Shown here: piece by piece, positions 22,524-41,355 of the stretch
How positions within the stretch are numbered: the stretch's first letter is position 1
Layout: every line of letters begins with the position of its first letter
Source: Nemertoderma westbladi
Lineage: Eukaryota > Animalia > Xenacoelomorpha
Direction of reading: 5' to 3'
Length of the DNA: 57,550 nt
Assembly (NCBI GenBank): GCA_032718475.1
Contig: JAUCBJ010001862.1
Location: forward strand, 1-57,550
Program-made: the position numbers and the translations under genes
The notes under the pieces: generated by a model
What the model was told of the DNA's origin: nothing
Database searches by the model: none
The model's input: only the letters and a program-made list of their open reading frames with translations

Positions 22524-23006
22524 TTTGTTTAATATCGCATGTTCAATTTCATTGAGATTCTTAAAGTAGTTATTAAGTAAGATTGTTTAGAATTAAATAA
22601 AATTGTAATTAGTAAGTTCTTTGACCCCAGCGAAGGTCCTGTACATTGTACAACCCGTTATCGAGTACCATTTAACCCAATAGGAACGCCAATCCTGCAT
22701 GATAGATAATGAATAAATAATTAAATTTAGAACGGATCCGCTAAATTAGATTACATATTATATTATTAAATCAAGTTGAAATTCTTGATTCTTGACAAGT
22801 CAAATTATATTAAATCAGATTACATATATTGTAAATTACATGTTAAATAACGAGATGCGGGAACTAAAGACTGGAAAATTACCTTAGAAGTTTGAAGAAA
22901 GTAACGACTCGTTTGCATCAGCAGGAACTAAAGAAGCGGGAAATGTCTTCCTGGCCTCTAGTATTTATTACATATACTAATTACAGTAAGTCGCTAGGCG
23001 GGCAGT

Positions 23007-23193
23007 AATGTCTCGCGCGCACTAATGTCTCGCGGGCACTAACGTCTCGCGGGCACTAACGTCTCGCGGGCACTAACATCCCATGGGACATTAGTGCCCG
23101 CGATAATGCGACTAAGTGACCGCGGGCACTAAAAGTACTGAGACATTAGTGCCCGCGGGCTCTAATGTCTCGCGGGCACTAACGTCCCAAGAC
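23007..23193. repeat. 17-bp direct and inverted unit cluster (MITE-like)
   Basis: TAAYGTCTCGCGGGCAC units and reverse-complement GACATTAGTGCCCGCG units. Confidence 0.7.
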
Positions 23194-23649: not shown

Positions 23650-24597
23650 CTATATTTTTTGATGACAATGGAATACTTCAAACAAAAATATACCACAAAC
23701 CAACAGACGTCCATCAATATATCAATCAATATATATGTCCGCACTCAGCCCATCCGCACAGTCAACTTAAACACGTTCCATATGGGGTTGCCCTACGATT
23801 GAGGCGTAACAATTCACGAATGGAGGATTTAATGCAAGCACTTTATGAATATGGAGCAGCATTCATTGCTAGGGGTTGGAGAATGGCCGATGTTACTACA
23901 CAATTTGCAGCGGCAGCTATTCAGACACAGTTAGAATCTCTACAAAATGATAAAAAACGAAATAAAAGTAAATATACCATATTTTATGTTAGTAACACTG
24001 AACCTATATTAGGATCAATACAAAAGATAGTAGACAAACATACACCTATTCTAAGAACAGACATCAGGACCAAGCAACTCATTGACTCTTATAAAATAGT
24101 AAATATTAACCGTAGGGCCCCTACGCTAAAGGGAATTTTAGTTCCATCCAGTTTAACATCAAAGCAGAAGAACCAGGCAAATACAACACATGCTGGATCT
24201 AAAAAATGTACAAGACAGAAATGTATACCATGTGAAGCGATAAAACCAACAAAACAATTCGGATTAACCTCGACCCGTTTGAAAACTAAATATGAAATTA
24301 AACAGCGCCTTACCTGTGATGACAAAGATATAATATATTTAGCAAAATGTAAAATATGTAACTTACAAGGAATCGGATCAACAGAAACATTTAAACCAAG
24401 GCTATCACAATATAAGTGTAATATAAAGAATCATAAGCCACAAACGACTATAGAGAAACATTTTTGTAAAAATGAAAACCATGATATTTCGCATTTCGAA
24501 ATAACACCCATTGAAAAGGTTCATTACAAAGGCAGGGGAAAGAAAGATCAGCGACGGGAGATCCGTACAAGGGAAGGATACTGGCAGTGCACCTTAA
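23650..24597 (+). mobile_element. Penelope-like element (RT thumb + GIY-YIG endonuclease), 5' part; continues at 42202
   Basis: KPTDVHQY, SAHP, IIYLAKCKIC..QGIGST, HF...H, REGYWQCTL; resumes as LRTIKPFGLN after the piggyBac. Confidence 0.9.
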
Positions 24598-24902
24598 AAC
24601 CTTCTAAGGACCAGACCCATTTCACATTAATATATCACAATTCCTTTCATAGGGCAGGCTCATATAGTCAAAATTAAGAAAAATTGTGAATTTCATGAAA
24701 ATCCATTCAGCCATTGGCCTATAAAGGGCATGTTCCCATTTGGGAACAGTGGGCGCTAAAGCACTAAGAATTTACAAAATTTCCATATTATTGAATACTC
24801 AAATTATTTCATCTATATTGAACCAATTACTGCTTAGTAGTATATACTAATGCATTATAAAACTTCCAATAACATAAATAGCGCCCTTACAACAATATTT
24901 AT

Positions 24903-26514
24903 TGTTCGCGGTATTTCAACTTTCCATAACGCGAGTTGAATATTTTTGTATTTATTTAAAATTGATTATTCCGATATTACTACTGGGTGCGGGACCATGG
25001 GTTTTGGGCACATTCAAGAAACTGGGGGCGATTTATGGGCGAACTTTGGGGCAACTTACAGGGTACGGGAATAATTTCATAGTTATAAGGGCCAGGGGGG
25101 GATGGAAAATGCAAGCAGTATTCAGGTTAGCCTGAGTACTATTAGGCCCTGGCCAACTTCCTGCTGCCTGTAGGGGTGGATTTGGTAATGCGCCAGGCCT
25201 AAAGGACAAGGACTGCCCTTAGCGGTCCCTGGCCAACAGCAGCCATTACGAGACTGAAAAGAACTCGGACCGCTGACTGCTTGTGTCAGGGATTTGCGAC
25301 GGGCACCGACGGCCCCTTAGTAGCCAAGCCGTTCTGGTTCTCGATGATCGTTCCCTTCGGGGTTCGTGAGGGGTGGAGCGGACACGCGAACGGGTGGCCA
25401 ACTAACGACTGCCCCCTGACCTAAGCCGTACTGGTTCTCGATGACCGATCCCTTCGGGGTTCGTGAGGGGTGGGACGGACATGCGAAAGGGCTGGCCACA
25501 GGACGGGTTTGACGAGAACTGCCCTTAGCGGTCTCTGGTCAACGGCAGCTACTACGAGACTGAAAAGAACTCGGAACGCTGACTGCTTGTACTGGGATTT
25601 GCGACGGGAACCGACGACAGACCCCTTAGCCAAGCCGTACTGGTTCTCGATGATCGTTCCCTTCGGGGTTCGTGAGGGGTGGAACGGACACGCGATGGGG
25701 TCGAAAGACAAAGGACTAGACTCGACTAGACTCTACTGGCCTACCGACTGTTCGGAGCAGTTTCTCGGCTGCCGAAGCGACTACGAGCCTGAAACGGACT
25801 CGGAAAGCCTAGGTGGTTGGGTTTCTGTGATGAACTGACGGACCCCTAGCCAAGCCGTTCTGGTTCTCGATGATCGAACCCTTCGGGGTTCGTGAGGGGT
25901 GGAACGGACACGCGAACGGGTCCACCGACACGACAGACTCCTAGCCAAGCCGTACTGGTTCTCGATGACCGAACCCTTCGGGGTTCGAGAGGGGTGGTAC
26001 GGATACGCGACAGAGTCTACCGACTGGACCGACCCTTAGCCAAGCCGTGCTGGTTCTCGATGATCGTTCCCTTCGGGGTTCGTGAGGGGTGGAACGGACA
26101 CGCGACAGGGTCGACCGACACCGACACTACGGCACTAAGACTGGGACCGAGGGAAAATCTGGGGAACATTAGGTAGGCTAAAATTCTGAGCAAACAGTGG
26201 GTTATTAAATAATATACTGTAGGGATTTATATTATCGTGTATAATTATTGTGAATATTTGGTGTATATTGATTTGGGGAAGCCCAAAATTATTCTTAATC
26301 AAGTTTCAATGATGTTGAACGGGTTTCAACTATAGGAAGTTACATTAAAGAGTATATCCAACTAATGCAGCTTTTTATCAACCGCAAACTTGCATCTCAG
26401 AAAATATTCCCTCCCCACAATCAATATCCGGTGACTGGCCGGGGCTCGGTGGTCTGTTAAGTCACGTCTCCAGCATCGGCGTTTTTCCCCCCTGGTGTAG
26501 GGATAACGGCAACA
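24903..26514 (+). repeat. 5' LTR (1612 bp)
   Basis: TGTTCGCGG...GGCAACA; matches 37586-39197 at offset 12683; one difference seen (25018 G vs 37701 T). Confidence 0.97.
25210..26115 (+). ncRNA. LTR array of structured RNA modules (6 K-turn/UUCG hairpins, 3 GAAA hairpins); repeated at 37893-38798
   Basis: repeated CCGTNCTGGTTCTCGATGAYCG..CCCTTCGGGGTTCGWGAGGGGTGG..CGG with compensatory closing stems (GACCC/GGGTC, GACTC/GAGTC). Confidence 0.65.
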
Positions 26515-26765
26515 AAATTAAGAATAATTCACGTGGTTAATTTTGACAGGGTGTCAAAATTAAGAATAATTACGGTCAACTTCAACTGGTGGAAGTTGAG
26601 AATCCTTCAATACTCTTCAAAAACTCTCTACGTGCTTGCCAGCACCCACTACGAGGAAACTCTGGTATTTGAGTTGAGACAAAGTCGTGGTTTAATTAAT
26701 CAGCAAACTCGATCTAACCAACTCGTAGTCGGCAGATCACATATTTGGAGAGTTGTTAACAGGGA

Positions 26766-26957
26766 ATGGAAGTATCGATCACACCCATTGATATAATTCA
26801 AGTTGAGCCAGGAATCTGGCACGTCGAAGTTGAGGTACAAGGAACGAACGTTGGACGATTCAGGATTACTGTTCGGGTGGTCCAAGCTGAGTACAATACC
26901 TACGAGGAACTGTTTTACGACATCGCGTATCTAGCCATCGACGAGGCGTTACAATGA
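26766..26957 (+). CDS. 63-aa upstream ORF overlapping the gag start (ATGA)
   Basis: ATG-initiated, amphipathic beta/alpha pattern, TGA stop overlaps the gag ATG at 26954. Confidence 0.5.
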   Translation: MEVSITPIDIIQVEPGIWHVEVEVQGTNVGRFRITVRVVQAEYNTYEELFYDIAYLAIDEALQ

Positions 26958-29900
26958 CAACAAATAACGTATCCGATACCGACGAGATGGATCACCACAC
27001 AGACTCGGAAGCCGACGAGGTACCAAACGTCAAGAACATGACCCGTCGGTTAGGGGCTCTTAAAGGCGGAGTAACCCGAGCGTATCAACGGATGGAGAAA
27101 CAACTCAAAGGAGTCAAAACCCCCCTCAATGAGGTACAAACTCAGCTTCAAAGTATCCGAAATATCCTACAGCGGTACGAAAGAATGATACAGGTGTACC
27201 AAGAGCTCGTTCCCCCCACCGATCAGGAAAACTACCCCAAGTTGGAAGAACACGTTGTACATCTAGATGGGTTCCGCAAACAACACCGGAGGACCCTCAG
27301 CCTTGTGAGAGGCTATGAGGAACAGTATTACAAGAGGGCTGACGCGGAATCAGTACGATCCTCCAGCATCAGGACAGCAGTACATCGTAAGAGAACGGGG
27401 TCCGCTAGAAATCAGCACTCCAGCGCTAGGAGCGAGATATCCGGCTCGGCGCGCAGTTCTCAAGGGGCGCCGCCACTCCGAGACCAACTGCGAGAACGGA
27501 AGGCATTAGCCCTCAAAGCTCGGATGGAAGATGAGTATATTCAACTGCAAGCCGAGCAAGATGTATTAGCCACCGAAACACAAAAGCGAGAGGCCGAACA
27601 AGCGGCCGAACGGCAGGCCGAACAACGCGAACAGGAGGCCGAACAACATAGACGAGAAGCCGAACGGCAGGCCGAACAACGTGAACAGGAGGCCGAACAA
27701 CATAGACGAGAGGCCGAACGAGAGATCGAACAACGTAAATGGGAAGCGGAAATGCGTAAACAACACGCCGAGGCCCAAGCAATTCTTATCCACAAAAAGA
27801 ATGCGGATATTGCAAAACTCGCAGAATACGAAGCCGCACTTATAGAACGAGATATTCATCTCTACGAGGACTGGGAAAGGGATATAGATCAGGAATATGA
27901 ACCAATTCCGGTACCGGAGTCATTTACACCAACAGCGGCGAAACCTCCGAAACCCGAGATCCCGCCTACCAAACAGTCTACGCTATCGGCACAAGCCCCG
28001 GTGTTCCATCCCCCACCAGCTACGCTAAAGAATGAGGAACCTTATTTCCCATCCAACACCACGACAGCGAGTGTACCCAAGTACGAGCCTGAAAGGGACT
28101 CGGAACGGGACGCCACTCCCCGATCTAACAACCCATTTACATCCACACCACAAACTCGTAGCCGCGTCATTATTAAAACTCCACCTATTATTGATCCATC
28201 AAGTATGGGAGTGAGTGCCAATAACTATAACCCTCCGAGTCACTCTAGTTCAGACGACGTCAGCATCATCCGGGCGTTGGAGAACCGCCTTGCCATGCCT
28301 AAGATGGAGATTCGCACCTTCGAAGGAGATCCCGTCGATTACCTCAGATTCAAGAAACGGTTCTTTGCACAAATCGGATCAACGGACATAGCCGACGCAC
28401 AGAAATTGGTATATTTATCGCAATACCTGGGTGACAAACCACGCAGTATTGTTGCATGTTTTGAAGGAGGTTCTCATGAGGCATACTATGACGCATGGAA
28501 AACTCTAGATAAAAGATACGGAAATACCGGAACTATAATTAATAAAACTCTAGAGAGACTGATACAGGACGCGGGATCACTAGGGGACCCACAGAACATA
28601 CAGGAATTCTCCGACTCTATGAAGGATGCCTACTATACTCTGAAACCCTTAAATAAAGAGGACCAGGTGAACAACATTCTAAACCTCCGACAGATCGCCA
28701 AGAAGTTCCCCGGATGGCTACAAAGTAAGTGGGCTTATAAATGTGTAGATCTCCGGCGCAGACATCCAGATCGAGATCCTAGCTTCCTTGAAATGTCGGC
28801 ATTCCTGGACGATATCTCCGAAGCCATGAATGACTCGATGTTTTCAAAACAAAGTCTCGCAAAGTTGGACGGAATAGAGAGCAACTCCAGGAGTAAGATA
28901 ACCCCTCCGAAACCGAGATTCCGCCCCCCACCGGTAAGTACGATGGCCATTACCATGGCCGAGGATTCCGACGACGAAGACTACGAGGAACCGACATCCG
29001 CCGAGGAATGGGCATGTTATCTCGCGAGTTGGGCACCCGAAAGGGAAGGCATCACAAATTCCCTGCTCTGTCTCTTCTGTGGGGAGAAACACAAAGTGGA
29101 ATTCTGCAGAAAGTTTCAGTTCGCCGAACTCGTCCCACGCTTCGAGGCGATAATGAAACACCGAGGATGCTTCCGGTGTCTTGGAACAGGTCACTATGTT
29201 CGGGAGTGCGACCAAAGATCATGCTGTACTGTCTGTAACGACCAACGCCATCACACGCTCCTCCACATCCCCGCGAACTTCGATTTTACTACCCTCCCCT
29301 TTCGGATCGAAGCCAGGCGAAGAGGAGAAACAAACCACATCTTTAAAGGAACCCGGACAACCCAACGGAGAGAAACCAACCCGTTTAAAATCTCCACCGA
29401 TACACCACAAGTAACCAATATTTCGGCCACGATTAATCTTATAAATCGCCGCTACATGGTTTTCGCAAAGGTAATCCCAGTAAGGATCCAAGGAGTCGGC
29501 AAATCTTTGACGACACTCGCGTTCCTCGATAACGGGTCTGACGGAACCATCATCGACCGGGATTTCCTCGAGCAACTCGGCCTAGAATATGAACCTTGTA
29601 AACGGCCCATACAAACCATCACCGATAACAGAGAGGTAGAGTCCGGGGAGGTACAACTCCAGATGGAAGGAGTGATGAAGGGCTACGAAACGGCTAAGTT
29701 AACCATCAAGAACGCCTTGGTACACACAGACCTCCGGGTGCGGTTCCGACAATCAGCCGAGTACGCCCCCCTCATACAATTAGACCGAGACGATGTAGAC
29801 CTGAGGTGTCCGCAGTTGGACGTGAACCGTATCACCCTACTGATTGGACTTGATACACCGGAACTACACATCCCCACCGGAGATATCGCTCGATCTATAA

Positions 29901-32900
29901 ACCAGGATGATGGATTCTATGCTGAACGAACAATAATGGGATGGACACTCTGCGGCATTAAGGAGGAAACTACGGACACCTATACCTACCTTCCTAAATG
30001 TCAGATTAAAGAGAATGTAACCTCTGTGGGTTATTGCTCAGCTTCAGATCTTGACGAGGATTTGTTTCTGGAAACCGAGAAAACCCAACGAGAGATGACG
30101 AAATATTTTAATTTGGAGACCCAGGAGTTCGCGGAAAAGGACGAAAACCCATCCGAAGAGGACCAATATTGTATGGACGTTCTCGACCAGGCCACGTTTA
30201 AAGACGGACATTGGTGTTCACCTATGTTATGGAAGGATCCAAACAAACCAATGGCAAACAACGCCAGCATGGCACTTAGGCGACTTAAAGGGATTCTACG
30301 CCGGCTGAATGACCAACCCGAGATAAAGGAGAAATATAATACCGTAATCCAAGGATATCTCGATGATGGATTAGCAGAAATGGTACCACGGAATGAACTG
30401 CAAGGTGGTGAAAGAACATATTATCTCCCAACCCACTATGTAGTAGAAGCCCGCAAAGGTGGGAAAATCCGAGTGGTAAATGATGCTGCCGCTATGTACC
30501 AGGGCGAATCCCTAAACAGTCAACTTTACACGGGGCCCAACATATATAGCACACTCATTGGCGTATTGATCAGGTTCAGGGAAAACCGGGTAGCATTCAC
30601 CTGTGACATCAAGGCCATGTTTCATCAAGTTCGTACGTTACCAAGAGACTCGGACTGTCTACGTATCCTATGGACGGATAAAACGCTTACTCAACAGGAG
30701 ATTAGCCAACTCACGATAAAGGACGTAGACGTAATGCGTATGGTCGTCAGGATCTTCGGCGCTAAGGACTCGCCGGTAGCATGCAGTGACATGCTAAAGA
30801 GGACGGCAACTATGTGCGAAAACGAGTTCCCTCCAACTGTCATAGAAACAATTCGACGATGCTTCTACGTGGACGACGGATGCGCCGGCGCGGATAATGT
30901 GGATGAGGCATATCGGCTAGCAATGGGGATGGTAGAATGTCTAAAGAAAGGAGGGTTTCCGCTCGTGAAGTTCAGATCCCACGACAAAACACTTATGGAA
31001 AAGTTTCCGGAGGACATCCGGCTGGAAAATAACAAAATGTATTCGGAGGATGTGGAACATCGTGTACTTGGGATTGAATGGGACATAGAATCAGACGAAT
31101 TCATCTTCAAGTATAAACCCCTACCCAAGCCTATGACAAAAAGGGGATGTTTGTCGATAAAAAGCGCCATCTTCGACCCACTAAATTTCATATCTCCAGT
31201 AACCTTGGCCGGAATGAACCTGATTAAGGAAATGTGGATAGAAGGACTGGGATGGGACGAAGAGCTCCCCCCATACCTCAGCGTCAAATGGAGAAAATGG
31301 ACGGAGCAGCTCGAACACCTACATCTTATGCGGATACCTAGACCGTTCTTCCTCGATAAGTTGCCCACCGATATCTTCCAGCTCCACACCTTTTCGGATG
31401 CTTCGAATACCGGAATCGGCGTAGTCACCTTCCTACGGAGACTAAGTAACGATGGAAACGGCGATACAAGCTTCTTATTCTCCAAAGCAAAGACAGTATC
31501 CGGGGAATTCGTAGCAACGATCCCGAGACTCGAGCTACAAGCTGCAGTTTGGGCAGTAAGACAGAATCGCATGGTCATGCGGAACCTACGGATCCCCATA
31601 GAATCTCAACACTTCTGGGTAGATTCGAGTATAGTTCTCTATTATCTCCACTCTCCATCACGGCGTCACACCACGTTTGTTGCAAACCGAGCCACGGAGA
31701 TTAAACAGTGTACCGGCCGAGAACAGTGGCATCACGTGAACGGGAAGGAAAACCCAGCGGACTTATCAAGCCGAGGCGCCACCCCAAAACAACTCGGTAA
31801 AAGTAAACTCTGGCTTACAGGCCCGGAATTCCTACGGCAGCCACAATTAACATGGAGTACCCGATTCGACCCCGAGCTCGATAGCGGAAAATACTCCGAG
31901 GACGATAAAGAGATCCGTAAAATCCATCGAAGCAACGCGGTGGAAATTTATAGTTGTCTGACTGAGCCTGCAAAGGACTCGGGCAGGCACTATAACGTCG
32001 CGATGATCACCCAACTAGCGGCGTCTTTACATCGGTTGATCGAGCGAACTTCATCCATGAGACGGCTCGTCCACCACGTTATAACCCTTCGCAACTTCCT
32101 ACGGTGGAAAAACAACAAACCGATAGTTCAACGGAATATACAAGAACTCATTATCGCGGAGAAGTGTATTGTTAGATATGTCCAGAAAGAAAGTTTCCCC
32201 GATGAATGGGAACAACTTAGTGCGGGCAAAACGTTGAAACCGGACAGCCCAGTCTACCAACTGAGACCAATGATGGGAGAGGACGGACTGATCCGACTGA
32301 ATACCCGGATGGCAAACGCCCCGGTCGAATATGAGGTTAAATACCCGGCGCTTCTGCCCGGAACGTCGACACTAGCTAAGCTATTAATTCTACAATGTCA
32401 CGAGGACAACCACCACGCAGGACAGAATTGGATTATAGCTAATATAAGACAAAGATATTGGATCACCCACATCCAGCCACTGATCCGGAAAGTGTTGAAA
32501 CGTTGCTTCACCTGCAGACGTTACCTAGCGCCACCAATCACCCAAAAGATGGCCGACTTACCAGCCACCCGTCTACAAGCGGATTCCCCACCATTCTACG
32601 TCACCGGAGTGGACTGTTTCGGACCGTTCACGGTTATTGAACGACGATCCAACATCAAATGCTGGGGAGCCATCTTCACCTGCCTAAGGTCTAGGGCAAT
32701 TTACCTAGATATCGTGGTAAATCTGACACAACACGCATTCATCAACGCTCTGCGTCGGTTCGTGGCGAACAACGGGACATGCCGCCACATGTATTCCGAT
32801 AATGGTACAAACTTTGTGGGAGGAGAAAGAGAACTTAGAGAGGCGATCGAGGGATGGTTTACCGATAACACCGCATCCCAAGTCTGGAAGGAACACCAGA

Positions 32901-33571
32901 TACAGTGGCACTTCCAGACCCCCTTAGCACCCCATACGAGCGGGGTATGGGAGAAACTGATCGACCTAGTGAAACGATCCATGCGCGTCGCTCTAGGCGA
33001 CACCCGGGTAACCCATGACACCCTCCGCACAACATTCTGCGAGATCACGGCTACCCTGAACAACCGACCCATTGTCCCTATCCGCGACGACCCCACAGAC
33101 CTGGAGCCCCTCACTCCTAACCACTTACTGGGGAGACCCAAAACCCACGTTCTCCCGGAAACCATGTTCCCGGATCCCAACGAGATCGCGAAACATACAA
33201 ACTGGAAAAAGGCCCAAGCGTTGGCAGCGCATTGGTGGAGAATTTGGGCCCAGGAGTACCTCATAACCCTCCGGACCAGGAGGAAATGGAACAACACCTA
33301 CCGGAACGTCGCAGTTGGCGACATGGTACTAGTTAAAGAAGATCTCAAAGACCGCGTTCACTGGCCTGTGGCGCGGGTCGTGACCATACACCCAAGCAAA
33401 GACGGACTTGCGAGGACTGTGACGATACGAACGAAATCGGGCCACTACCAACGCCCCATCCAGAAGCTGTGCCTTCTTGAAGGCAATGACAGTGGTGATT
33501 CTACAAGAGGTGATAAGTTCCCTACTACGGATCCTACTGTGGACATTGGTGACAATTATAAATGCGTTTAA
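26954..33571 (+). CDS. BEL/Pao Gag-Pol polyprotein (2205 aa)
   Basis: Gag FEGDP region, three BEL-type Cys/His knuckles, protease FLDNGS, RT YVDD, RNase H FSDAS/IPRLEL/NPAD, integrase HHCC and VDCFGP/SDNGTNF/WE, C-terminal WPVARV. Confidence 0.97.
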   Translation: MTTNNVSDTDEMDHHTDSEADEVPNVKNMTRRLGALKGGVTRAYQRMEKQLKGVKTPLNEVQTQLQSIRNILQRYERMIQVYQELVPPTDQENYPKLEEHVVHLDGFRKQHRRTLSLVRGYEEQYYKRADAESVRSSSIRTAVHRKRTGSARNQHSSARSEISGSARSSQGAPPLRDQLRERKALALKARMEDEYIQLQAEQDVLATETQKREAEQAAERQAEQREQEAEQHRREAERQAEQREQEAEQHRREAEREIEQRKWEAEMRKQHAEAQAILIHKKNADIAKLAEYEAALIERDIHLYEDWERDIDQEYEPIPVPESFTPTAAKPPKPEIPPTKQSTLSAQAPVFHPPPATLKNEEPYFPSNTTTASVPKYEPERDSERDATPRSNNPFTSTPQTRSRVIIKTPPIIDPSSMGVSANNYNPPSHSSSDDVSIIRALENRLAMPKMEIRTFEGDPVDYLRFKKRFFAQIGSTDIADAQKLVYLSQYLGDKPRSIVACFEGGSHEAYYDAWKTLDKRYGNTGTIINKTLERLIQDAGSLGDPQNIQEFSDSMKDAYYTLKPLNKEDQVNNILNLRQIAKKFPGWLQSKWAYKCVDLRRRHPDRDPSFLEMSAFLDDISEAMNDSMFSKQSLAKLDGIESNSRSKITPPKPRFRPPPVSTMAITMAEDSDDEDYEEPTSAEEWACYLASWAPEREGITNSLLCLFCGEKHKVEFCRKFQFAELVPRFEAIMKHRGCFRCLGTGHYVRECDQRSCCTVCNDQRHHTLLHIPANFDFTTLPFRIEARRRGETNHIFKGTRTTQRRETNPFKISTDTPQVTNISATINLINRRYMVFAKVIPVRIQGVGKSLTTLAFLDNGSDGTIIDRDFLEQLGLEYEPCKRPIQTITDNREVESGEVQLQMEGVMKGYETAKLTIKNALVHTDLRVRFRQSAEYAPLIQLDRDDVDLRCPQLDVNRITLLIGLDTPELHIPTGDIARSINQDDGFYAERTIMGWTLCGIKEETTDTYTYLPKCQIKENVTSVGYCSASDLDEDLFLETEKTQREMTKYFNLETQEFAEKDENPSEEDQYCMDVLDQATFKDGHWCSPMLWKDPNKPMANNASMALRRLKGILRRLNDQPEIKEKYNTVIQGYLDDGLAEMVPRNELQGGERTYYLPTHYVVEARKGGKIRVVNDAAAMYQGESLNSQLYTGPNIYSTLIGVLIRFRENRVAFTCDIKAMFHQVRTLPRDSDCLRILWTDKTLTQQEISQLTIKDVDVMRMVVRIFGAKDSPVACSDMLKRTATMCENEFPPTVIETIRRCFYVDDGCAGADNVDEAYRLAMGMVECLKKGGFPLVKFRSHDKTLMEKFPEDIRLENNKMYSEDVEHRVLGIEWDIESDEFIFKYKPLPKPMTKRGCLSIKSAIFDPLNFISPVTLAGMNLIKEMWIEGLGWDEELPPYLSVKWRKWTEQLEHLHLMRIPRPFFLDKLPTDIFQLHTFSDASNTGIGVVTFLRRLSNDGNGDTSFLFSKAKTVSGEFVATIPRLELQAAVWAVRQNRMVMRNLRIPIESQHFWVDSSIVLYYLHSPSRRHTTFVANRATEIKQCTGREQWHHVNGKENPADLSSRGATPKQLGKSKLWLTGPEFLRQPQLTWSTRFDPELDSGKYSEDDKEIRKIHRSNAVEIYSCLTEPAKDSGRHYNVAMITQLAASLHRLIERTSSMRRLVHHVITLRNFLRWKNNKPIVQRNIQELIIAEKCIVRYVQKESFPDEWEQLSAGKTLKPDSPVYQLRPMMGEDGLIRLNTRMANAPVEYEVKYPALLPGTSTLAKLLILQCHEDNHHAGQNWIIANIRQRYWITHIQPLIRKVLKRCFTCRRYLAPPITQKMADLPATRLQADSPPFYVTGVDCFGPFTVIERRSNIKCWGAIFTCLRSRAIYLDIVVNLTQHAFINALRRFVANNGTCRHMYSDNGTNFVGGERELREAIEGWFTDNTASQVWKEHQIQWHFQTPLAPHTSGVWEKLIDLVKRSMRVALGDTRVTHDTLRTTFCEITATLNNRPIVPIRDDPTDLEPLTPNHLLGRPKTHVLPETMFPDPNEIAKHTNWKKAQALAAHWWRIWAQEYLITLRTRRKWNNTYRNVAVGDMVLVKEDLKDRVHWPVARVVTIHPSKDGLARTVTIRTKSGHYQRPIQKLCLLEGNDSGDSTRGDKFPTTDPTVDIGDNYKCV

Positions 33572-33847
33572 ACCCTTCTCATCATGTTGACAAACTCTTT
33601 TTAACTGTGATTTATCGACAATGAGTTATGGACCCCCTTTAAACCAACTGTAACCACGCATGGTATTTGTGTTTCCTCGTGTGTTATGTGGAGTCCAGCG
33701 TCACCCTGCAGATGTTTCGGCTGACGCAGGGTCGTTTATGTATTGTTTACCCTGATTTTGGTCATCGGGACCAACGATATTGGATTATTGGAAATGGAAA
33801 AGATTTGAAGTGGAATTCATTGTATTCATTGCAGTATGTTATGTTGT

Positions 33848-34268
33848 CCGTTGCGTCGGTAGTTCGGGGCGTAGGCGGTGTAACGAGTCCAGCTGTAGAT
33901 CCCGGATTGCCGCGCAACACCCCCCTCTATCCCGTTATTCTGGTGGATCCATGGTGCATCCACATGACTTCGACGATAGAGGGTTTTATGTTTCTCAGTC
34001 GCGTTATTCTGGTGGGACCGTTACGTGGATTTTGGGGCGTAGGCGGTGTAACGAGTCCAGCTGTAGATCCCAGAATGTTGCGTAACCCCATCCCACATGA
34101 CTTCGTCGACTGAGCTTTATGTTGTTGGGAGTGTTATTCTGGTGGGTCCCTGGTGCATCCACGTGACTTCACTCCTAGCGTCTTCATTGTCCGTTACGTG
34201 CGCAGTTTGGGGCGTAGGCGGTGTAACGAGTCCAGCTGTAGATCCCAGATTGCCGCGTAACACCCCTT
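33848..34268 (+). ncRNA. three covarying pseudoknot-like modules between pol and ORF2
   Basis: GGGGCGTAGGCGGTGTAACGAGTCCAGCTGTAGATCCC x3; GTTGCG/CGCAAC versus GTTACG/CGTAAC covariation. Confidence 0.6.
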
Positions 34269-34819
34269 CCACGACAAAGATTAACCAAAGAAAATGATTG
34301 AATATAGTTGGAAACGATGAAAAGGATCAGACAACTCTACTATAAACCTGAATGATGACGCGTATACTGATGAAAATGTAATGATGCGCACCCTGGTGCT
34401 GCGCTTATAACAATGATGATAGCCGGGGGGCTATAAACCCAAATGATGATGTGGAAATAAATAAATGTGAAATAAATGGTGGAACTAAATGTTGAAATAT
34501 ACGTGGAAATAAATGAAATAAGATGAAATAATAATGAAATGAAAAAAGACAAAAAAAAGGTATAAAAAAGGTCAAAGAAAAGAATTAGAAAAAAGAAAAG
34601 GACAAAAAAGTCATAAAAAACTGGTTGGATATTATGTATAGCTATAGTAACTGTAAATGCTGAATGTATTAGCAATAAGATGATAGATGCCTATATAGCA
34701 ATGTTATTAATAAACTGAATTAAATAAAAAAAAACTGAATTATTCTGCTATCGCTATAGTTTCAGACTTTCTGGACTTATAATTAACTGATCTAATTTGT
34801 AACGGATATAATCGTAAAT

Positions 34820-37420
34820 ATGGACCCAAATCGCCAAATTATCGGCGAATTACGTAACACGATAGATCTACTGGAATATTCGCAACCCGGATCCCCTGAC
34901 TTTGATACAAATGGGAGCACCCTGCTAAATGAGAACGTGCGAGTCATTAAATTCACCGGGCGAGAGGGACCGGATTCTAAGAATCTACGAGCCCTCCGGT
35001 TAGCTGATGCTAGTACGAGACTGAAAAGAACTCGGAACGCAAAGGCAACCGGAGGGGACGATTCGTCGTTTTGGGAAACGTTCCGGCAGAGCGTCTACAG
35101 ATCCCGATGTTTGATCTACGACAACGAGGGAAACGCGACGCCCACCTCGAAAGCGATTACGTTGGCGAGATGTCAAAGTTTCGTCGACGACAAGAGTACG
35201 TACCTCGCCCACTGGGGAAACCTGTCGGAGTGTACGGCGACGCTTCGAGAGGAACGCGTATCGATTATCCAAAACCGAGACGACTACCAAGAAAAGTACG
35301 GGGCGAAAGAATACGGTCGATCCTTAGTCGTCGTCCTCGGAACCCTGGACGGTTTGGTACTGGTGTGCCGAATATTCCCGACACCCAGACAGGAAGTGCA
35401 GGCAGCCGGAGCGATCTGGTTGCTGCCTCCGGAAATCCAAAAGATCCTCTTCGACTTCGACGTCATTAAAATCGGGTCGGATATCAAGGCGGACGTCCGG
35501 AACGACTACGCGAACGCCCCTGCAGGAAGAAACCGACGAGACGACCTCAACGCCCTTAGCCATTGCATCGACACTCAAACGCTACTAGCCTGGTTACGAT
35601 TCGCCGAGTTCATGCGAGGATTCCAAGAGGTGAGACCGACGAAATCCGGGATCGGCTACCTCGCTGTGCTCAACGGCGGTATCGACTTCAAACCCCAGAA
35701 ATTCCGGGACTATAATAAAATATACGGTGGATACCCGGGATTGGAAATAAAGAGCGAGCGAGAGGGTCGATGGAAGGACGTTGATCGGAAGTGGACGATA
35801 CACCAAAGGTGGGAGAATCCTGATCGACGGAACTACGTTTACGTCGTTATGGAGTGCTACACCGTCGCTAAGTTTATCTGTAAAACTCTCGATAACCTTA
35901 TTACGGCGGTCCCCCTTTCCTTCGTCGACTACGACTGGAACGAGGTTATAAACCACGCGTTTAAAGCGGTCGAGAACATTACACCGGGAGAATCGAAAAC
36001 ACCCGCCGTTATCGATTCCTGGGACGAGAGCGGACCTTACGACATCCCTACGATTACCGAACTTCTCGGTGCGGAGGAGCCTCTGATCTCCTCGGAAGGG
36101 GAAGAGATATGGCTAAACGAGGGTGTTCTACTCTCCACCCCGAAGCGACAACTCGAGCCGGAGGCCGCGTATGGACCGGCCGCCAAACGGGTTGCCTCGG
36201 CCGAACCGATGAAGAGAGCAGGCGTTTACACCCCACGCGGCTCCGGTAGCCCCGCGAGGGAGGTAGCCACTACAGCTGCATTGAGCGACTTCGGCGACAT
36301 ATGCCAACGGTTATCCCCGTATCCTTTCCCGGGTGGCGAAGATTGGTCGTCGGAGATTCCGAGTACCAGCCACCAATGGACCCGCTCAGCGATACTGGTC
36401 GAGGAGGGCCCCAGCGATGCGCCGACACCCGACGATCTCCTCGGTATCCCTCCGTCTAAAACCCCGGCACCCCTTCGCCGACCAGCGGTGGCTACTACAC
36501 CCGCCGTTCCTCAGGACCCTATGCGACTAACCCGTTGGTACGCCGAGCAAACTGAATGGATCCACCGCCAGAAACGGTCATCCGAGTTGAGACCAGCGGG
36601 ACACAAAGAAGGTTATCGGAGCGAGAACCTATTACGCAAAAGCCTAGCATTCCGCGGGCTACCGACCACCGAGAATATTCCGAAGAGCGACCGACGACTC
36701 GAATACTACGTCGGCGTCCCGATTCCGATATTTCCTGGTCGAGAGATACAGTTGGAGGTATGCGGCGACTGCGGTTCGGAGCAGTGCCCACGCAGCAGAA
36801 GGAATCGGGTTACCGATTCTTGCCTCCAGCTCCTCGGGATACTCTATTGCCCATACTGCGCGACATCGGGCCACGACGTTTCCGTCTGCCCGATCCTTTA
36901 TAACCTCTGCACCACGTGCGGTTTCCGTGGACATTCCTCTAGCCCCCGCTGCTATATCAAATGTCCAACCAAAGACGTTACCGCTATGGGCAATATGGTC
37001 ATGTTTGAGACATACGCAAACAGCCACTTAAAGACCAAGGTTCGGAGAAACGCTCGGAATATCGCGCAGGAGATGGCGTGCGGATATTTCTCCTTCCCGG
37101 AACGCCTCCACACGTCGGCCACGCTACCTTTCCATTACGTGGATCTGCTACTGAGCGCCGGATTATTCGGTCCATTTGAAGTCATTAGACGATTATACTC
37201 GTATAAAGAGGAGTTCGGTGACGGAGAATGGTTCCTAGAGGCACGCAAATCTGAGTTGGAGAGACGAACCGACATGATCCCGATGCCTTCGAAAGGAAGA
37301 GCCGCCAGGAGACAAGCCGAAGCGTTACTCACGATGGATGTTGACGCTCCTCTACCAGCCATAGCGATCGATGAGAGTCGACGGGCGAAGAGACGAAAGG
37401 CGTATCAGAGAAAGAAATAG
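34820..37420 (+). CDS. BEL accessory ORF2 (866 aa): DEDDy/WRN-like 3'-5' exonuclease-fold domain + Pro-rich linker + Cys/His zinc knuckles
   Basis: LPPEIQKILFDFDVIKIGSDIKAD, CIDTQ, GIGYLA, RWENP, YVVME; CPYCATSGHDVSVC, CTTCGFRGHSSSPRC; basic C-terminus; no signal peptide or TM segment seen. Confidence 0.75.
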   Translation: MDPNRQIIGELRNTIDLLEYSQPGSPDFDTNGSTLLNENVRVIKFTGREGPDSKNLRALRLADASTRLKRTRNAKATGGDDSSFWETFRQSVYRSRCLIYDNEGNATPTSKAITLARCQSFVDDKSTYLAHWGNLSECTATLREERVSIIQNRDDYQEKYGAKEYGRSLVVVLGTLDGLVLVCRIFPTPRQEVQAAGAIWLLPPEIQKILFDFDVIKIGSDIKADVRNDYANAPAGRNRRDDLNALSHCIDTQTLLAWLRFAEFMRGFQEVRPTKSGIGYLAVLNGGIDFKPQKFRDYNKIYGGYPGLEIKSEREGRWKDVDRKWTIHQRWENPDRRNYVYVVMECYTVAKFICKTLDNLITAVPLSFVDYDWNEVINHAFKAVENITPGESKTPAVIDSWDESGPYDIPTITELLGAEEPLISSEGEEIWLNEGVLLSTPKRQLEPEAAYGPAAKRVASAEPMKRAGVYTPRGSGSPAREVATTAALSDFGDICQRLSPYPFPGGEDWSSEIPSTSHQWTRSAILVEEGPSDAPTPDDLLGIPPSKTPAPLRRPAVATTPAVPQDPMRLTRWYAEQTEWIHRQKRSSELRPAGHKEGYRSENLLRKSLAFRGLPTTENIPKSDRRLEYYVGVPIPIFPGREIQLEVCGDCGSEQCPRSRRNRVTDSCLQLLGILYCPYCATSGHDVSVCPILYNLCTTCGFRGHSSSPRCYIKCPTKDVTAMGNMVMFETYANSHLKTKVRRNARNIAQEMACGYFSFPERLHTSATLPFHYVDLLLSAGLFGPFEVIRRLYSYKEEFGDGEWFLEARKSELERRTDMIPMPSKGRAARRQAEALLTMDVDAPLPAIAIDESRRAKRRKAYQRKK

Positions 37421-37576
37421 TGGATCGGGATATTCCAGGAACATTTATCGAACATTTATTTTTATACAAACTCTAGGCCAAATTAATTAAAAACTATGCA
37501 ATATTAAATTTGGGTTTTTTATATTGGGAATGACCTACGCAAACTCAATCGACCGACAGACTTCACGAAGGTCATT

Positions 37577-37585
37577 GGGGGGGAC
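37577..37585 (+). other. polypurine tract
   Basis: GGGGGGGA immediately before the 3' LTR. Confidence 0.8.
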
Positions 37586-39197
37586 TGTTCGCGGTATTTC
37601 AACTTTCCATAACGCGAGTTGAATATTTTTGTATTTATTTAAAATTGATTATTCCGATATTACTACTGGGTGCGGGACCATGGGTTTTGGGCACATTCAA
37701 TAAACTGGGGGCGATTTATGGGCGAACTTTGGGGCAACTTACAGGGTACGGGAATAATTTCATAGTTATAAGGGCCAGGGGGGGATGGAAAATGCAAGCA
37801 GTATTCAGGTTAGCCTGAGTACTATTAGGCCCTGGCCAACTTCCTGCTGCCTGTAGGGGTGGATTTGGTAATGCGCCAGGCCTAAAGGACAAGGACTGCC
37901 CTTAGCGGTCCCTGGCCAACAGCAGCCATTACGAGACTGAAAAGAACTCGGACCGCTGACTGCTTGTGTCAGGGATTTGCGACGGGCACCGACGGCCCCT
38001 TAGTAGCCAAGCCGTTCTGGTTCTCGATGATCGTTCCCTTCGGGGTTCGTGAGGGGTGGAGCGGACACGCGAACGGGTGGCCAACTAACGACTGCCCCCT
38101 GACCTAAGCCGTACTGGTTCTCGATGACCGATCCCTTCGGGGTTCGTGAGGGGTGGGACGGACATGCGAAAGGGCTGGCCACAGGACGGGTTTGACGAGA
38201 ACTGCCCTTAGCGGTCTCTGGTCAACGGCAGCTACTACGAGACTGAAAAGAACTCGGAACGCTGACTGCTTGTACTGGGATTTGCGACGGGAACCGACGA
38301 CAGACCCCTTAGCCAAGCCGTACTGGTTCTCGATGATCGTTCCCTTCGGGGTTCGTGAGGGGTGGAACGGACACGCGATGGGGTCGAAAGACAAAGGACT
38401 AGACTCGACTAGACTCTACTGGCCTACCGACTGTTCGGAGCAGTTTCTCGGCTGCCGAAGCGACTACGAGCCTGAAACGGACTCGGAAAGCCTAGGTGGT
38501 TGGGTTTCTGTGATGAACTGACGGACCCCTAGCCAAGCCGTTCTGGTTCTCGATGATCGAACCCTTCGGGGTTCGTGAGGGGTGGAACGGACACGCGAAC
38601 GGGTCCACCGACACGACAGACTCCTAGCCAAGCCGTACTGGTTCTCGATGACCGAACCCTTCGGGGTTCGAGAGGGGTGGTACGGATACGCGACAGAGTC
38701 TACCGACTGGACCGACCCTTAGCCAAGCCGTGCTGGTTCTCGATGATCGTTCCCTTCGGGGTTCGTGAGGGGTGGAACGGACACGCGACAGGGTCGACCG
38801 ACACCGACACTACGGCACTAAGACTGGGACCGAGGGAAAATCTGGGGAACATTAGGTAGGCTAAAATTCTGAGCAAACAGTGGGTTATTAAATAATATAC
38901 TGTAGGGATTTATATTATCGTGTATAATTATTGTGAATATTTGGTGTATATTGATTTGGGGAAGCCCAAAATTATTCTTAATCAAGTTTCAATGATGTTG
39001 AACGGGTTTCAACTATAGGAAGTTACATTAAAGAGTATATCCAACTAATGCAGCTTTTTATCAACCGCAAACTTGCATCTCAGAAAATATTCCCTCCCCA
39101 CAATCAATATCCGGTGACTGGCCGGGGCTCGGTGGTCTGTTAAGTCACGTCTCCAGCATCGGCGTTTTTCCCCCCTGGTGTAGGGATAACGGCAACA
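37586..39197 (+). repeat. 3' LTR (1612 bp)
   Basis: near-identical to the 5' LTR, followed by TSD TTTAT. Confidence 0.97.
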
Positions 39198-39465
39198 TTT
39201 ATTATATTTATTAGTAATATTATTATTAATTAACAAATATTATATTACAACTAAGAAGACAAGTAGTAATGTAAATTATTAATTAATAAATTTAAATAAA
39301 ACAAAAGAAAAAACTTTTCCATACAATTCCATCTATATATTTCAGTATTATATAGAGACATATTTATTAATTAATATTACTACTAATTAATTAATAGAAA
39401 ATAATTAGAAATTTACTCTCTGAGTTTACCATGAGCTGAAAAACGATTTAGCTTTCATATAGAGT

Positions 39466-41355
39466 TCAGTGTGTGTTCTTTGAATGGTAAATTATCCAAC
39501 AAACTTTTCCGTGATCACTGTGCAGTCTCTTCTTACATTTTCTACATTGAATTCGCGTATTTTTTTGACATACAGCACATCTTCCTTGTGTAACTTCTTC
39601 CCTAAAGTGCTCCATTTCGTCACATCGGATATCATCAGGTACATGACGCGGTTTACCACTCATACGCCTTGGTTCCCTTATTTGAGCAGTGGCTCCAACA
39701 GTGCCAGATACAATAAGATGTGTAAGATGTGTGATAGCTGCTCTCCTTTCGGAAATATGCGACAATGAACTCTCCAAGCAGCAGTCATGCAAACCCCTAG
39801 AGATTCAATGAAAAGTGGAAACCACCACTTCTTGGCTTTTATTCGGGGACGATATGAAGAAACTAACCTATCTAACAAATCTACACCACCCATACCCTGG
39901 TTATACTTCACAACATCTCCAGGAACCTTCACTTGAACACTACCACCTTTGACTCTCCTCTTTACATTTCCAACTGGTTCATGTCCAATAGCATTGCTTG
40001 CCATGTGAACGATGTTATTGTCATGCCACTTTGTGATATGAACAATGCCATCACATATATAGTCAAATGTTCCTCGAGGCGATTTTTTCATATCCTTCGT
40101 GCTCATCAGGCTGATATTTGCACCACCTGTTCTGTCTTGTCGTATTGTACCAGTTGTTGCTGCACCTCGTTCCTTCATCACTCGTAGCAAAGCATAACTA
40201 GTAAAGAAATTGTCAATGTAAAAATGGTGTTTAGACAATAATGACACACTTTCAATAACATCAGCCATGTGGAGAACGACCTTCCCACCAAGGGTAGTTT
40301 TTGGAACTTTCTCTCGTGCTCGTTCATAGCGATCCACTTTTGCCTGCTTTGCTGGTGGTGCCTTCTCTTTATTGGTAGATTGGGTATCAGCACCATCTTT
40401 CTCCTTTCCAGTGTAAATCTTTAGTTGATACGGATATCCATTACTGCCTGCAACGCACCACCCCTTGTACCCAAAACGAACGGGTTTATTAGCCATAAAC
40501 TGCCTAGCTGAATGAAGGCCATAGTAAGGTATCATGGCTTCATCTATTGATAGTTCACTATCAAATATCCCAAACTGAAGAAGTCAAGCATTCATCATAT
40601 CGTATAAGGGCTGAACCTTCGCAATTTTGTTGCCTTGTTCTAAGTTAAGATTGTCAGCCAGGTGAAAGTATCGCTTGATTAATTCAAATCGATTTCGCGG
40701 CATCGTTTCTTTTACAATTGGAATACCAAGATCATTGTCATCTGACCACATATCACGCTGAGATGGTACTTGGTGATAGCCAGACAATAAAATAATCCCA
40801 AGAAACTTACGAATTTCAATGTCGTTAGTCTTGAATGGAGGGCAGTTTTTATCTCTATTCGCATATAAATCAGTCTGAGTCACAAAAATATCAATCATTT
40901 CGTTGTCCATGTATTTGGAGAATAGTTTGAACGGAGAAGCTCCTGCTATTGATGGATCAACACAGTCCGGTTTTTCTAAACTTTGAAGTTCTGGTTGTGG
41001 AGGGTGCGCTATATTTAAGTTTTTCCGCCATTTATGCTTTTCATGCACAGATTCTTCAACCTCATCAGCATCATTGGATGTCTCGTCATAGTTGTAATCA
41101 TTCTCATATTCCTCTTCCACTTCTATTTCACCAGCAGGCTCAGGTAGGAATGTTGGGTCTATGTCGTCATCCTGCTCCTCATCACTGTCAGCATTGCGGT
41201 CGTCACCTGTATCAGGAGGCAGTATGGTCACAGTTGTAGACAAAGTCCCATGGTGTGATGCTATTGAATCAGCAGCATCTCCTGAGAGTTTTAAATCGTG
41301 CAGTTCTTGTTATTCCACGTTTTCCATAGAATGATACTGGGTCTGCCACTGCCAT
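39466..41355 (-). pseudogene. piggyBac (PGBD2/3-like) transposase with in-frame stop and frameshifts
   Basis: SIDEAMIPY, NKPVRFGYK, YIDNFFTS, YNQGMGGVDLLD, C-terminal Cys-rich domain; TGA at 40584-40586 in frame; frameshifts near 41280 and 39720. Confidence 0.92.

Follow-up and report, generated by a model that had tools for sequence, protein, structure and literature searches.

An intact BEL/Pao retrotransposon of Nemertoderma westbladi with repeated structured RNA modules and a probable DEDDy-like, zinc-knuckle protein gene

Whether the extra protein gene and the repeated RNA structures of a single retrotransposon belong together is the question raised by positions 24903-39197 (+ strand) of the window, the whole 57.5-kb stretch of DNA that was analysed. 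This 14,295 bp element is bounded by TG..CA LTRs of 1612 bp (24903..26514 and 37586..39197) that differ by 1 mismatch over 1612 bp, is flanked by the 5 bp target duplication TTTAT (24898-24902 and 39198-39202), and includes a polypurine tract (37577..37584) and a single unbroken gag-pol ORF of 2205 aa (26954..33571), all on the + strand. The near-identical LTRs, the duplication and the unbroken ORF bear out the young, intact element proposed in an earlier note on this DNA. The polyprotein domains were, in order, PF03564, aspartyl protease, PF05380, PF17921 and PF18701, with the Pao peptidase (PF05380), DUF1759, DUF5641 and the integrase zinc domain present in Pfam searches, and the order is the Pao-type PR-RT-RH-IN. 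PF05380 was found in all 120 gag-pol homologues among the matches listed, and the nearest Pol relatives among them are only 35-39% identical; Gag has zinc knuckles of its own. The element is a recently inserted, intact BEL/Pao retrotransposon. Named clades of BEL/Pao are BEL, Pao, Tas, Suzu, Sinbad, Dan and Flow.

In common with BEL/Pao elements (Belpaoviridae, Semotivirus), it is LTR-flanked and has a single gag-pol ORF (gag-PR-RT-RH-IN), a Pao peptidase domain, a polypurine tract and a target duplication. However, at 14.3 kb and with 1.6-kb LTRs it exceeds the 4.2-10 kb and 0.2-1.2 kb given, together with an env-like third gene if any, in PMC8742986 and PMC3118150. Its third ORF is non-env, it carries structured-RNA arrays, and it lacks the 18-nt primer-binding site for tRNA-Arg or tRNA-Gly that the ICTV profile places after the 5' LTR (PMC8742986). 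The first TGG occurs only 20 nt past the LTR with no tRNA-like sequence there, an absence that the earlier note overlooked and that weakens the match to the profile description but leaves the Pol-based assignment intact.

The 866-aa ORF downstream of gag-pol, ORF2 (34820..37420, + strand), had been described as non-env, and in Pfam it gave no significant match and no env family. No env features were seen, and in the alignment the 19-mer of highest hydrophobicity falls on beta strands of the exonuclease fold, in agreement with that description. The predicted layout is an N-terminal extension, a DEDDy-like domain (~aa 145-350), a low-complexity linker, three Cys/His knuckles (aa 648-711) and a conserved C-terminal segment. 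Two knuckles are of the CCHC form C-x2-C-x4-H-x4/5-C (aa 677-690 and 697-711), and the third is degenerate (C-x2-C at 648). Three distant homologues were found, and one of them, the best match P0124 (encoded on a 9449-nt contig), has both ORF2 domains (E 6e-16 and 2e-11), retains D-x-E / D / Y-x-x-x-E, and has knuckles that match HIV nucleocapsid (E 1e-4). Against a 3-member DEDDy profile, one member of which was retrieved by pattern from the same matched segment, the ORF2 family gave an HH probability of 85% and a score of 43 (maximum 18.5 in 30 shuffles) over a match of only 28 columns. The exonuclease domain of a phage DNA polymerase (L039), found with the ORF2-family alignment, served only as a DEDDy reference. 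Foldseek placed EXD2 exonuclease at ranks 1-3 and 5, at non-significant scores, and ESM-atlas gave a PF01612 cluster at 0.91 for ORF2. P0124 matched Pfam PF01612 with E 0.2 and did not significantly match a single archaeal PF01612 protein (E 0.72); two AlphaFold models were of low confidence (pLDDT 32 and 34). The ExoI D-x-E, intact in 3/3 homologues, is broken in ORF2 whatever the register (4-residue insertion, D-Y-Q), while D225 aligns with the ExoII Asp and Y341-x-x-x-E345 fits ExoIII in one of two registers only. The proposal of a DEDDy-like fold with zinc knuckles is thus backed by several weak, concordant results (HH, Foldseek, ESM-atlas, the P0124 alignment and the knuckle motifs), and ORF2 is likely to have a DnaQ-like fold of the DEDDy (EXD2/WRN-like) type in which ExoI is broken, with two canonical knuckles and one degenerate.

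The ORF2 differences listed among close-copy contigs are all synonymous (5/5). Word-index protein searches recovered 0/7994 candidates with ORF2 and, with the ORF2-family alignment, P0124 itself alone among 7987. Nothing was found in PDB sequence searches with ORF2 or its profile, no related locus was detected in viral or metagenome contigs, and ORF2-family queries had no match in plasmids and phages. Among the matches listed, the contig alignments included no splice joint into ORF2; an acceptor-like TTTCAG is located ~55 nt upstream of the ORF2 start.

Juno and Vesta are presumably Ty3/gypsy-like LTR elements. According to the available text of PMC5408684 and PMC6431247, these bdelloid rotifer elements, which belong to lineages other than BEL/Pao, and Terminons carry a DEDDy ORF3, which has likewise been proposed to act in 3'-end processing or silencing. 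In the rotifer LTR elements, as is predicted here, a gene of the DEDDy 3'-5' exonuclease-like type takes the place of env; however, the catalytic residues (DEED) are kept in the rotifer proteins whereas ExoI is broken here, and the present element adds three C-terminal knuckles and RNA module arrays, the latter unmentioned for rotifers in the same text. As DEDDy extra ORFs were already known in LTR elements (PMC5408684, accessible part), the earlier description of a candidate new system is overstated. Egalitarian, EXD1 and Maelstrom also combine an exonuclease fold with RNA recognition, as is predicted for ORF2 (bioRxiv 10.1101/2025.08.03.668247 and PMC5408684, both in part), and the DEDD domain of Egalitarian reads a stem-loop localisation signal (bioRxiv 10.1101/2025.08.03.668247, in part). 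These are host genes, whereas ORF2 is element-borne, and no sequence similarity of ORF2 to any of the three was detected. A BEL/Pao element with a DEDD ORF, a K-turn array or self-priming was not encountered in the literature searched, largely without subscription papers and Repbase reports.

Four unrelated types of RNA module (A-D), each with recognisable RNA motifs, are present in the element. They are genuine structured RNA of the + strand, the polarity being indicated by cUUCGg caps, GNRA caps and invariant G-U pairs. Module A occurs six times in the 5' LTR (25306, 25405, 25614, 25834, 25930 and 26025; span 25306..26119, + strand) and again in the 3' LTR (37989-38802, + strand), and is a K-turn consensus hairpin capped by cUUCGg, with a basal internal loop similar to the 11-nt GAAA-tetraloop receptor. 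A GAU bulge of 3 nt, tandem G.A/A.G and a C-G closing pair, with flanking helices, make up the K-turn pattern in 6/6 copies, so the claim of six K-turn-like hairpins per LTR holds; the fold of lowest predicted energy uses another register, in which the bulge is 5 nt. In box C/D and U4 K-turns, the targets of L7Ae/15.5K, a 3-nt bulge likewise leads into G.A and A.G pairs (PMC4382518, in part), and an adjoining U.U is shared by 4/6 copies, but here six copies lie within a retrotransposon LTR and the kinked fold is a predicted one. L7Ae proteins bind K-turns selectively (PMC4382518, accessible part), and the K-turns of module A, the most numerous of the four, point to host L7Ae-family proteins as ligands rather than to a DEDD protein.

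At one position in the outer stem of module A the Watson-Crick pair takes three different forms, and there is one compensatory pair among copies 3-6; covariation in the inner core was not significant (335/500 shuffles). Identity to a reference copy is 80-94%, some of the copies lie in tandem, and lone copies are often no more stable than shuffles (z -3.2 to +0.9). Compared with canonical GAAA receptor pairs taken from the available parts of PMC10243134 and PMC2275092, six of the 11 positions of the basal loop (C2, A4, A5, G6, A8 and G10) are kept in 6/6 copies, and three C-to-U differences between copies run towards the canonical receptor. The loop departs from it at the 1-11 pair and usually also at positions 3 and 7, changes described as destabilising in the same parts of these papers. 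C-to-U is the commonest kind of difference.

Module B, also on the + strand, is present three times in the 5' LTR (25225-25290, 25531-25596 and 25760-25825), repeated in the 3' LTR (37908-38508), and has a GAAA cap and a bulged A that sits above an internal loop resembling a loop E/S-turn. Single copies are found in the Pro-rich linker of gag (codon ~377; 28060..28125, core motif 28082) and in ORF2 (codon ~65; 34992..35057, core motif 35014), in different reading frames. With up to 2 mismatches allowed, 8/8 matches to the core motif in the window fall inside the element, and the covariation score of the lower stem was reached by 0/500 shuffles, confirming the three GAAA hairpins per LTR with copies in gag and ORF2 that had been reported. 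That inventory was incomplete, as pol contains a B-like hairpin between RNase H and integrase (codon ~1670; 31946..31999, + strand) with a GCAA tetraloop and a bulged A but no S-turn (E 0.037; z -3.5, 0/200 shuffles). The ORF2 copy is identical to LTR copy B2 at 31/32 nt; its place near the 5' end of ORF2 itself is an operator-like location.

A diverged ORF2 contig (~85% identical) carries module B with stem-compatible changes, but the GNRA loop is lost and an in-frame stop follows shortly 3' of the hairpin, and it may be a dead copy. The double change in this contig is a variant already present in LTR copy B3, and may therefore have been copied from the LTR rather than represent independent compensation; there are five differences within B, where conservation is no higher than in the flanks. 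A scan of metagenome contigs for the B motif gave one match, in a contig of phage-like character whose proteins do not resemble those of the element. Three prokaryotic matches to the B motif and 38 single viral matches to a short A pattern were taken as chance.

Three covarying pseudoknots had been proposed upstream of ORF2, but module C (33840-33930, 34010-34096 and 34183-34272, + strand) was found to consist of long hairpins with an invariant 38-nt core. The nested helix, which contains a G-run, has three double-sided changes in three copies (12/500 shuffles), whereas the pseudoknot-specific stem has none and is broken in one copy, and releasing the G-run for this second stem costs 11-12 kcal/mol. 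An H-type pseudoknot was rejected, as its crossing stem is unsupported by covariation and incompatible with the nested helix. A motif scan for module C gave 0 matches. Module D, which the earlier note overlooked, occurs three times in the same region (cores 33934, 34003 and 34133; span 33924..34179, + strand) and has a conserved internal-loop stem and outer stems that are unrelated in sequence yet paired; its second copy encloses C2. An Rfam 15 scan of 24800-39300 (E <= 10) gave one match in 14.5 kb, RsmY on the opposite strand, regarded as chance, and no ribozyme or snoRNA, the module A region included. Compared by eye with their consensuses, the topologies of twister, pistol, twister-sister, hammerhead and hairpin ribozymes, SECIS and SRP-Alu did not fit.

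A TATA-like box (25084-25089, + strand) precedes a probable transcription start near 25113, where one contig of run X4 has a loose end; contigs are a weak hint of a start only, and the loose end presumably resembles a template-switch adaptor. With a start at this point, the nine LTR hairpins would be at both ends of the genomic RNA. Contigs collapse between A copies and lose the leader duplication. A possible poly(A) site lies close to 34560. A putative 63-aa ORF (26766..26957, + strand) does overlap the gag start by ATGA, as had been noted, but its status as a gene was not upheld by ESM-atlas (below 0.9) or Pfam (best E 0.067).

The reading that we tentatively prefer, while rating it at somewhat less than even, is that the four kinds of hairpin are handles for an RNA-protein particle and that ORF2 is an RNA-binding helper that reads at least one of them. 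The A K-turns would bring in a host protein of the L7Ae family (15.5K/Snu13 type), and B, present in linkers of gag, pol and ORF2, would be where an element-encoded protein most probably attaches. That protein would be ORF2, binding B as the Egalitarian exonuclease domain binds its stem-loop, and the RNA would be shielded, routed or translationally controlled, while C and D, 3' of the pol stop, may be 3'-UTR signals of the gag-pol message. Retention of B in coding linkers, in two reading frames and with covariation, favours this reading, but Gag with its own knuckles could be the reader, and host proteins account for the K-turn majority without ORF2. The Rev/RRE-like pairing of ORF2 with the modules that the earlier note suggested is a candidate interpretation, and searches for relatives with genomic context, in which the two might be seen to co-occur, found none. 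It is possible, if doubtful, that the hairpins are read by host proteins, Gag and each other, A binding the L7Ae family and docking the GAAA loop of B in its basal loop to compact or dimerise the RNA for packaging, with ORF2 a separate, general 3'-end trimming or anti-silencing factor like rotifer DEDDy ORF3. Host reading is consistent with the uniform K-turn pattern and the selectivity of L7Ae (PMC4382518, in part), and docking with the six invariant receptor positions and the C-to-U changes, though the off-canonical positions and the general prevalence of C-to-U count against it. The rotifer DEDDy ORFs shift between unrelated retroelements (PMC5408684, in part), suggesting non-specific action, but the broken ExoI argues against a general nuclease and the operator-like position of B against a separate role. 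We consider it distinctly unlikely that the arrays are a functionless by-product of template switching by reverse transcriptase, in which stable hairpins multiplied inside the LTR, tolerant linkers received further copies, and ORF2 was picked up as a passenger. The similarity and partly tandem order of the A copies, their shuffle-like folding when alone, the near-identity of the ORF2 and LTR copies of B and the collapsing contigs would all be expected, but pairing survives sequence change in the outer stems of both A and D and in the lower stem of B, C has its double-sided changes, the four module types are unrelated, and ORF2 is open over 866 codons with mostly silent differences between close copies. 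That one module represents an undescribed class of self-cleaving ribozyme, processing LTR or intergenic RNA, is most improbable; invariant internal loops in variable stems (the C core above all) and the occurrence of ribozymes in LTR retrozymes and Penelope-like elements (PMC6431247, in part) are set against the lack of an Rfam ribozyme family match and of a supported pseudoknot.

Priming offers a further role for the LTR. The primer-site position (26517..26529, + strand), 2 nt past the LTR end and duplicated at 26559-26571, is complementary to LTR segment 26287..26299 (also 38970-38982). The exact 13-nt complement is the longest for the first 6 start positions past the LTR, a length reached by 1/2000 block-wise dinucleotide shuffles, and has a 2-nt spacer and the orientation of a primer. 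In known self-primers the primer is the 5' end of the RNA, whereas here, unlike in Tf1, the segment is deep in the LTR, ~1.2 kb into the RNA. Self-priming, in which this segment, or the copy of it in the 3' LTR, pairs with the primer-site position, ORF2 or RNase H trims or cuts to free a 3' end and the hairpins organise the step, is rather unlikely. It has precedent in Tf1/Sushi, Tcn1 and TAR elements, for which it is described or predicted and which share the absence of a tRNA site and the complementary LTR (PMC6317226, in part), and DEDDy enzymes trim structured-RNA 3' ends (PMC5408684, in part). However, the duplex is AU-rich (-11 kcal/mol) with a cis pairing probability of only 0.03-0.22, and the complement could represent an inverted repeat between U5 and leader or the scar of a template switch. 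X4 contigs extend to at least 26487, and ~200 nt would therefore need removal to expose the primer end. Contigs of X1 and X3 omit the 44-48-nt leader duplication but keep most of segment 26517..26529; the accessible part of PMC12440569 held nothing relevant on primers. Also unlikely is the wider combination of a BEL/Pao lineage without a tRNA primer in which the LTR segment primes reverse transcription, the K-turn/receptor and GAAA array folds the genome into a scaffold decorated by host proteins, and the DEDDy/zinc-knuckle protein recognises this scaffold, either maturing the primer or protecting the RNA against silencing.

Returning to the particle reading and its rivals together, the element probably enlists its own protein and those of its host in packaging, protecting or priming its RNA, in a manner unreported in the literature searched. 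BEL/Pao replication is poorly understood, with tRNA priming assumed (PMC8742986), and this element deviates from the profile simultaneously in size, third gene and primer site, and supplies short, discrete RNA modules suited to in vitro testing. With it, DEDDy accessory genes, the function of which was left open in rotifer elements (PMC5408684, in part), would reach another LTR superfamily, next to candidate RNA targets. Self-priming, if true, would be a mode unreported for BEL/Pao in the literature searched, and if the K-turn arrays do recruit host L7Ae proteins, this would be a retrotransposon borrowing snoRNP/snRNP parts.

The LTR retrotransposon at 24903–39197 has 1612-bp LTRs that start with TG, finish with CA and differ at a single base, and it is flanked by a TTTAT target duplication, indicating a recent insertion. 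Its gag-pol ORF (26954–33571; 2205 aa) encodes DUF1759, aspartyl protease, Pao peptidase A17, integrase zinc and DUF5641 domains, a set that places the element in BEL/Pao. Homologues of gag-pol made up 1528 of 5658 candidates at E ≤ 1e-50, and identity was just 35–39% among the 120 matches listed, which marks this lineage as poorly sampled. Contigs from four public sequencing runs covered 30/30 (X1 and X3), 29/30 (X4) and 17/30 (X5) bins, and X1 and X3 yielded thousands of variant contigs, which fits a multi-copy family, with depth not equivalent to copy number. Among the 40 contig differences listed (864 in total), 30 were in gag-pol (24 third-position, 21 silent) and five in ORF2, all silent.

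The window is dense in transposons and has no obvious host gene. A LINE-like element with endonuclease and RT (8732–11708), a MITE-like array of 17-nt repeats in both orientations with nested inverted repeats (22998–23189), a weak, Penelope-like GIY-YIG match (23820–24677) and an IS4/piggyBac-type transposase (39678–40535) were identified. An intact-looking 1002-aa ORF on the reverse strand (50212–53220), adjoining a 21-nt tandem array, has RT-like and C-terminal zinc/endonuclease-like motifs; it had no Pfam match and resembles a CRE-type non-LTR element.

Four kinds of repeated RNA hairpin were found, modules A (six copies) and B (three, B1–B3) in each LTR, and C and D (three each) between the pol stop and ORF2, and an Rfam scan gave no match for any of them. 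The earlier note, made from the sequence alone, had described six K-turn-like hairpins per LTR, GAAA hairpins in the LTR, gag and ORF2, and three pseudoknots, and was largely right: all six A copies match the K-turn pattern, and 8/8 matches to B within the window lie inside the element. However, the supposed pseudoknots, which are the copies of C, fold as long hairpins, and module D had been overlooked.

In module B, a hairpin capped by GAAA, a bulged A lies above an AGUA/GAA-like internal loop, and its copies in gag (28060–28125) and ORF2 (34992–35057) are in different reading frames. Three pairs carry double-sided changes, and the covariation score was reached by 0/500 shuffles, a figure that, coming from five related copies, is not a probability. 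The score for the module A core was reached by 335/500 shuffles, as this core varies too little to reveal covariation, though the outer stems of copies 3–6 vary in pairs; the fold z of single A copies ranged from -3.2 to +0.9. Searching with a covariance model of B revealed a further B-like hairpin, which lies in pol (E 0.037; fold z -3.5). In a contig ~85% identical to ORF2, five differences fall inside module B; two turn a mismatch into a C-G pair, a third creates a G-U pair, the fourth opens the top pair, which is likewise broken in LTR copy B3, and the last destroys the GNRA loop. As an in-frame stop directly follows the hairpin and the contig may be a dead copy, its support for module B is modest. 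At 35009–35040, the ORF2 copy also seems to resemble the ribosomal sarcin-ricin loop, with the AGUA/GAA motif and a hairpin inserted in its tetraloop. The basal loop of module A keeps 6/11 positions of the GAAA receptor, as given in PMC10243134 and PMC2275092, a possible resemblance that serves as a lead only.

ORF2 (34820–37420; 866 aa) had no significant match among Pfam and PDB sequences, and when residues 41–370 were compared by HMMER with all of 1.84 billion proteins, three matches reached E ≤ 0.001. These distant homologues (P0124, P0125 and P0126), singleton proteins from ENA assemblies with no genomic context, form a family with ORF2. P0124 shares both domains with ORF2, at E 6e-16 for the N-terminal one and E 2e-11 for the Cys/His region. 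The zinc knuckles of P0124 gave a match to HIV nucleocapsid; of the three in ORF2, two are canonical and the third is degenerate. PF01612 occurs in 50% of members of the ESM-atlas cluster at rank 5 (score 0.91), and Foldseek, with a poor model, placed EXD2 exonuclease at ranks 1–3 and 5 (best E 0.83). Profile-profile comparison of the family with three natural PF01612-type domains gave a probability of 85% over 28 columns, above 30/30 column shuffles, one of the three having originally been found through the matched segment itself. These tests are weak singly but concordant, and a DEDDy fold is likely.

One X4 contig has a loose end at 25113, ~25 nt downstream of a TATA-like box, that looks like a template-switch adaptor; this hints weakly that X4 derives from cDNA and that transcription takes in all nine LTR modules. 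Assuming a start at 25113, the gag 5' leader (25113–26953) is 1.84 kb, highly structured and contains 14 upstream ATGs, six within K-turn cores, making plain scanning unlikely, so that gag would need internal entry, shunting, or re-initiation past a 63-aa ORF. Two perfect hairpins (z -3.3) lie directly 3' of the 5' LTR (26515–26612), and a 17-nt stretch across the LTR end has a second copy 43 nt downstream, a duplication absent from X1 and X3 contigs. CUGGUG, with a raw count of nine in the element, recurs where loops are predicted at the LTR end, in the leader and in module D (26492, 26586, 33940, 34009, 34139, 34150 and 34393). Between 34420 and 34610 there is a TATA-like box near 34431 and AATAAA at 34456, 34471 and 34508, and in X4 a loose end at 34559 looks like poly(A). 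An internal poly(A) site for gag-pol with a separate ORF2 start is possible; internal oligo-dT priming in an A-rich tract explains the 34559 end equally well.

The modules may be cis-acting handles on genomic RNA, with A predicted to bind a host L7Ae-family protein (PMC4382518). Module B, with copies in gag, pol and ORF2, would be the most probable binding site of an element protein, and ORF2 is the likeliest candidate reader by analogy with Egalitarian (bioRxiv 10.1101/2025.08.03.668247). This reading is tentatively preferred, barely ahead of one in which the modules are read by Gag and host proteins and through RNA-RNA docking, with ORF2 acting separately; the ORF2-RNA pairing proposed in the earlier note is a reasonable hypothesis. 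The ICTV profile (PMC8742986) describes an 18-nt site for tRNA-Arg/Gly downstream of the LTR in BEL/Pao elements, and none is present after this 5' LTR. Instead, 26517–26529, 2 nt past the LTR end and oriented as for a primer, is exactly complementary to LTR positions 26287–26299, a match equalled at the primer-site position in 1/2000 shuffles, and it and its duplicate are the only two of 11,070 internal 13-mers with an LTR complement. The element might prime its own reverse transcription, but in cis this duplex forms only weakly (pairing probability 0.03–0.22), making self-priming a doubtful, minority reading. Neutral duplication of the modules is a little less probable still, and a ribozyme among them very improbable.

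Only env-like third genes of BEL/Pao are mentioned in the ICTV profile and the consulted passages of PMC3118150, and no BEL/Pao element with a DEDDy-type gene, K-turn array or self-priming was found in the searched literature, where subscription journals and Repbase reports are thinly represented. DEDDy-type genes in the env position are already known from rotifer Juno and Vesta, their function left open (PMC5408684, PMC6431247). Those genes have intact catalytic residues, whereas in alignments ORF2 appears to keep the ExoII Asp and probably the ExoIII Y-x-x-x-E but does not keep the ExoI D-x-E, and it is predicted to be a weakened or non-catalytic RNA-binding protein. As the ExoI D-x-E is kept in 3/3 homologues, catalytically active members of the ORF2 family probably exist.
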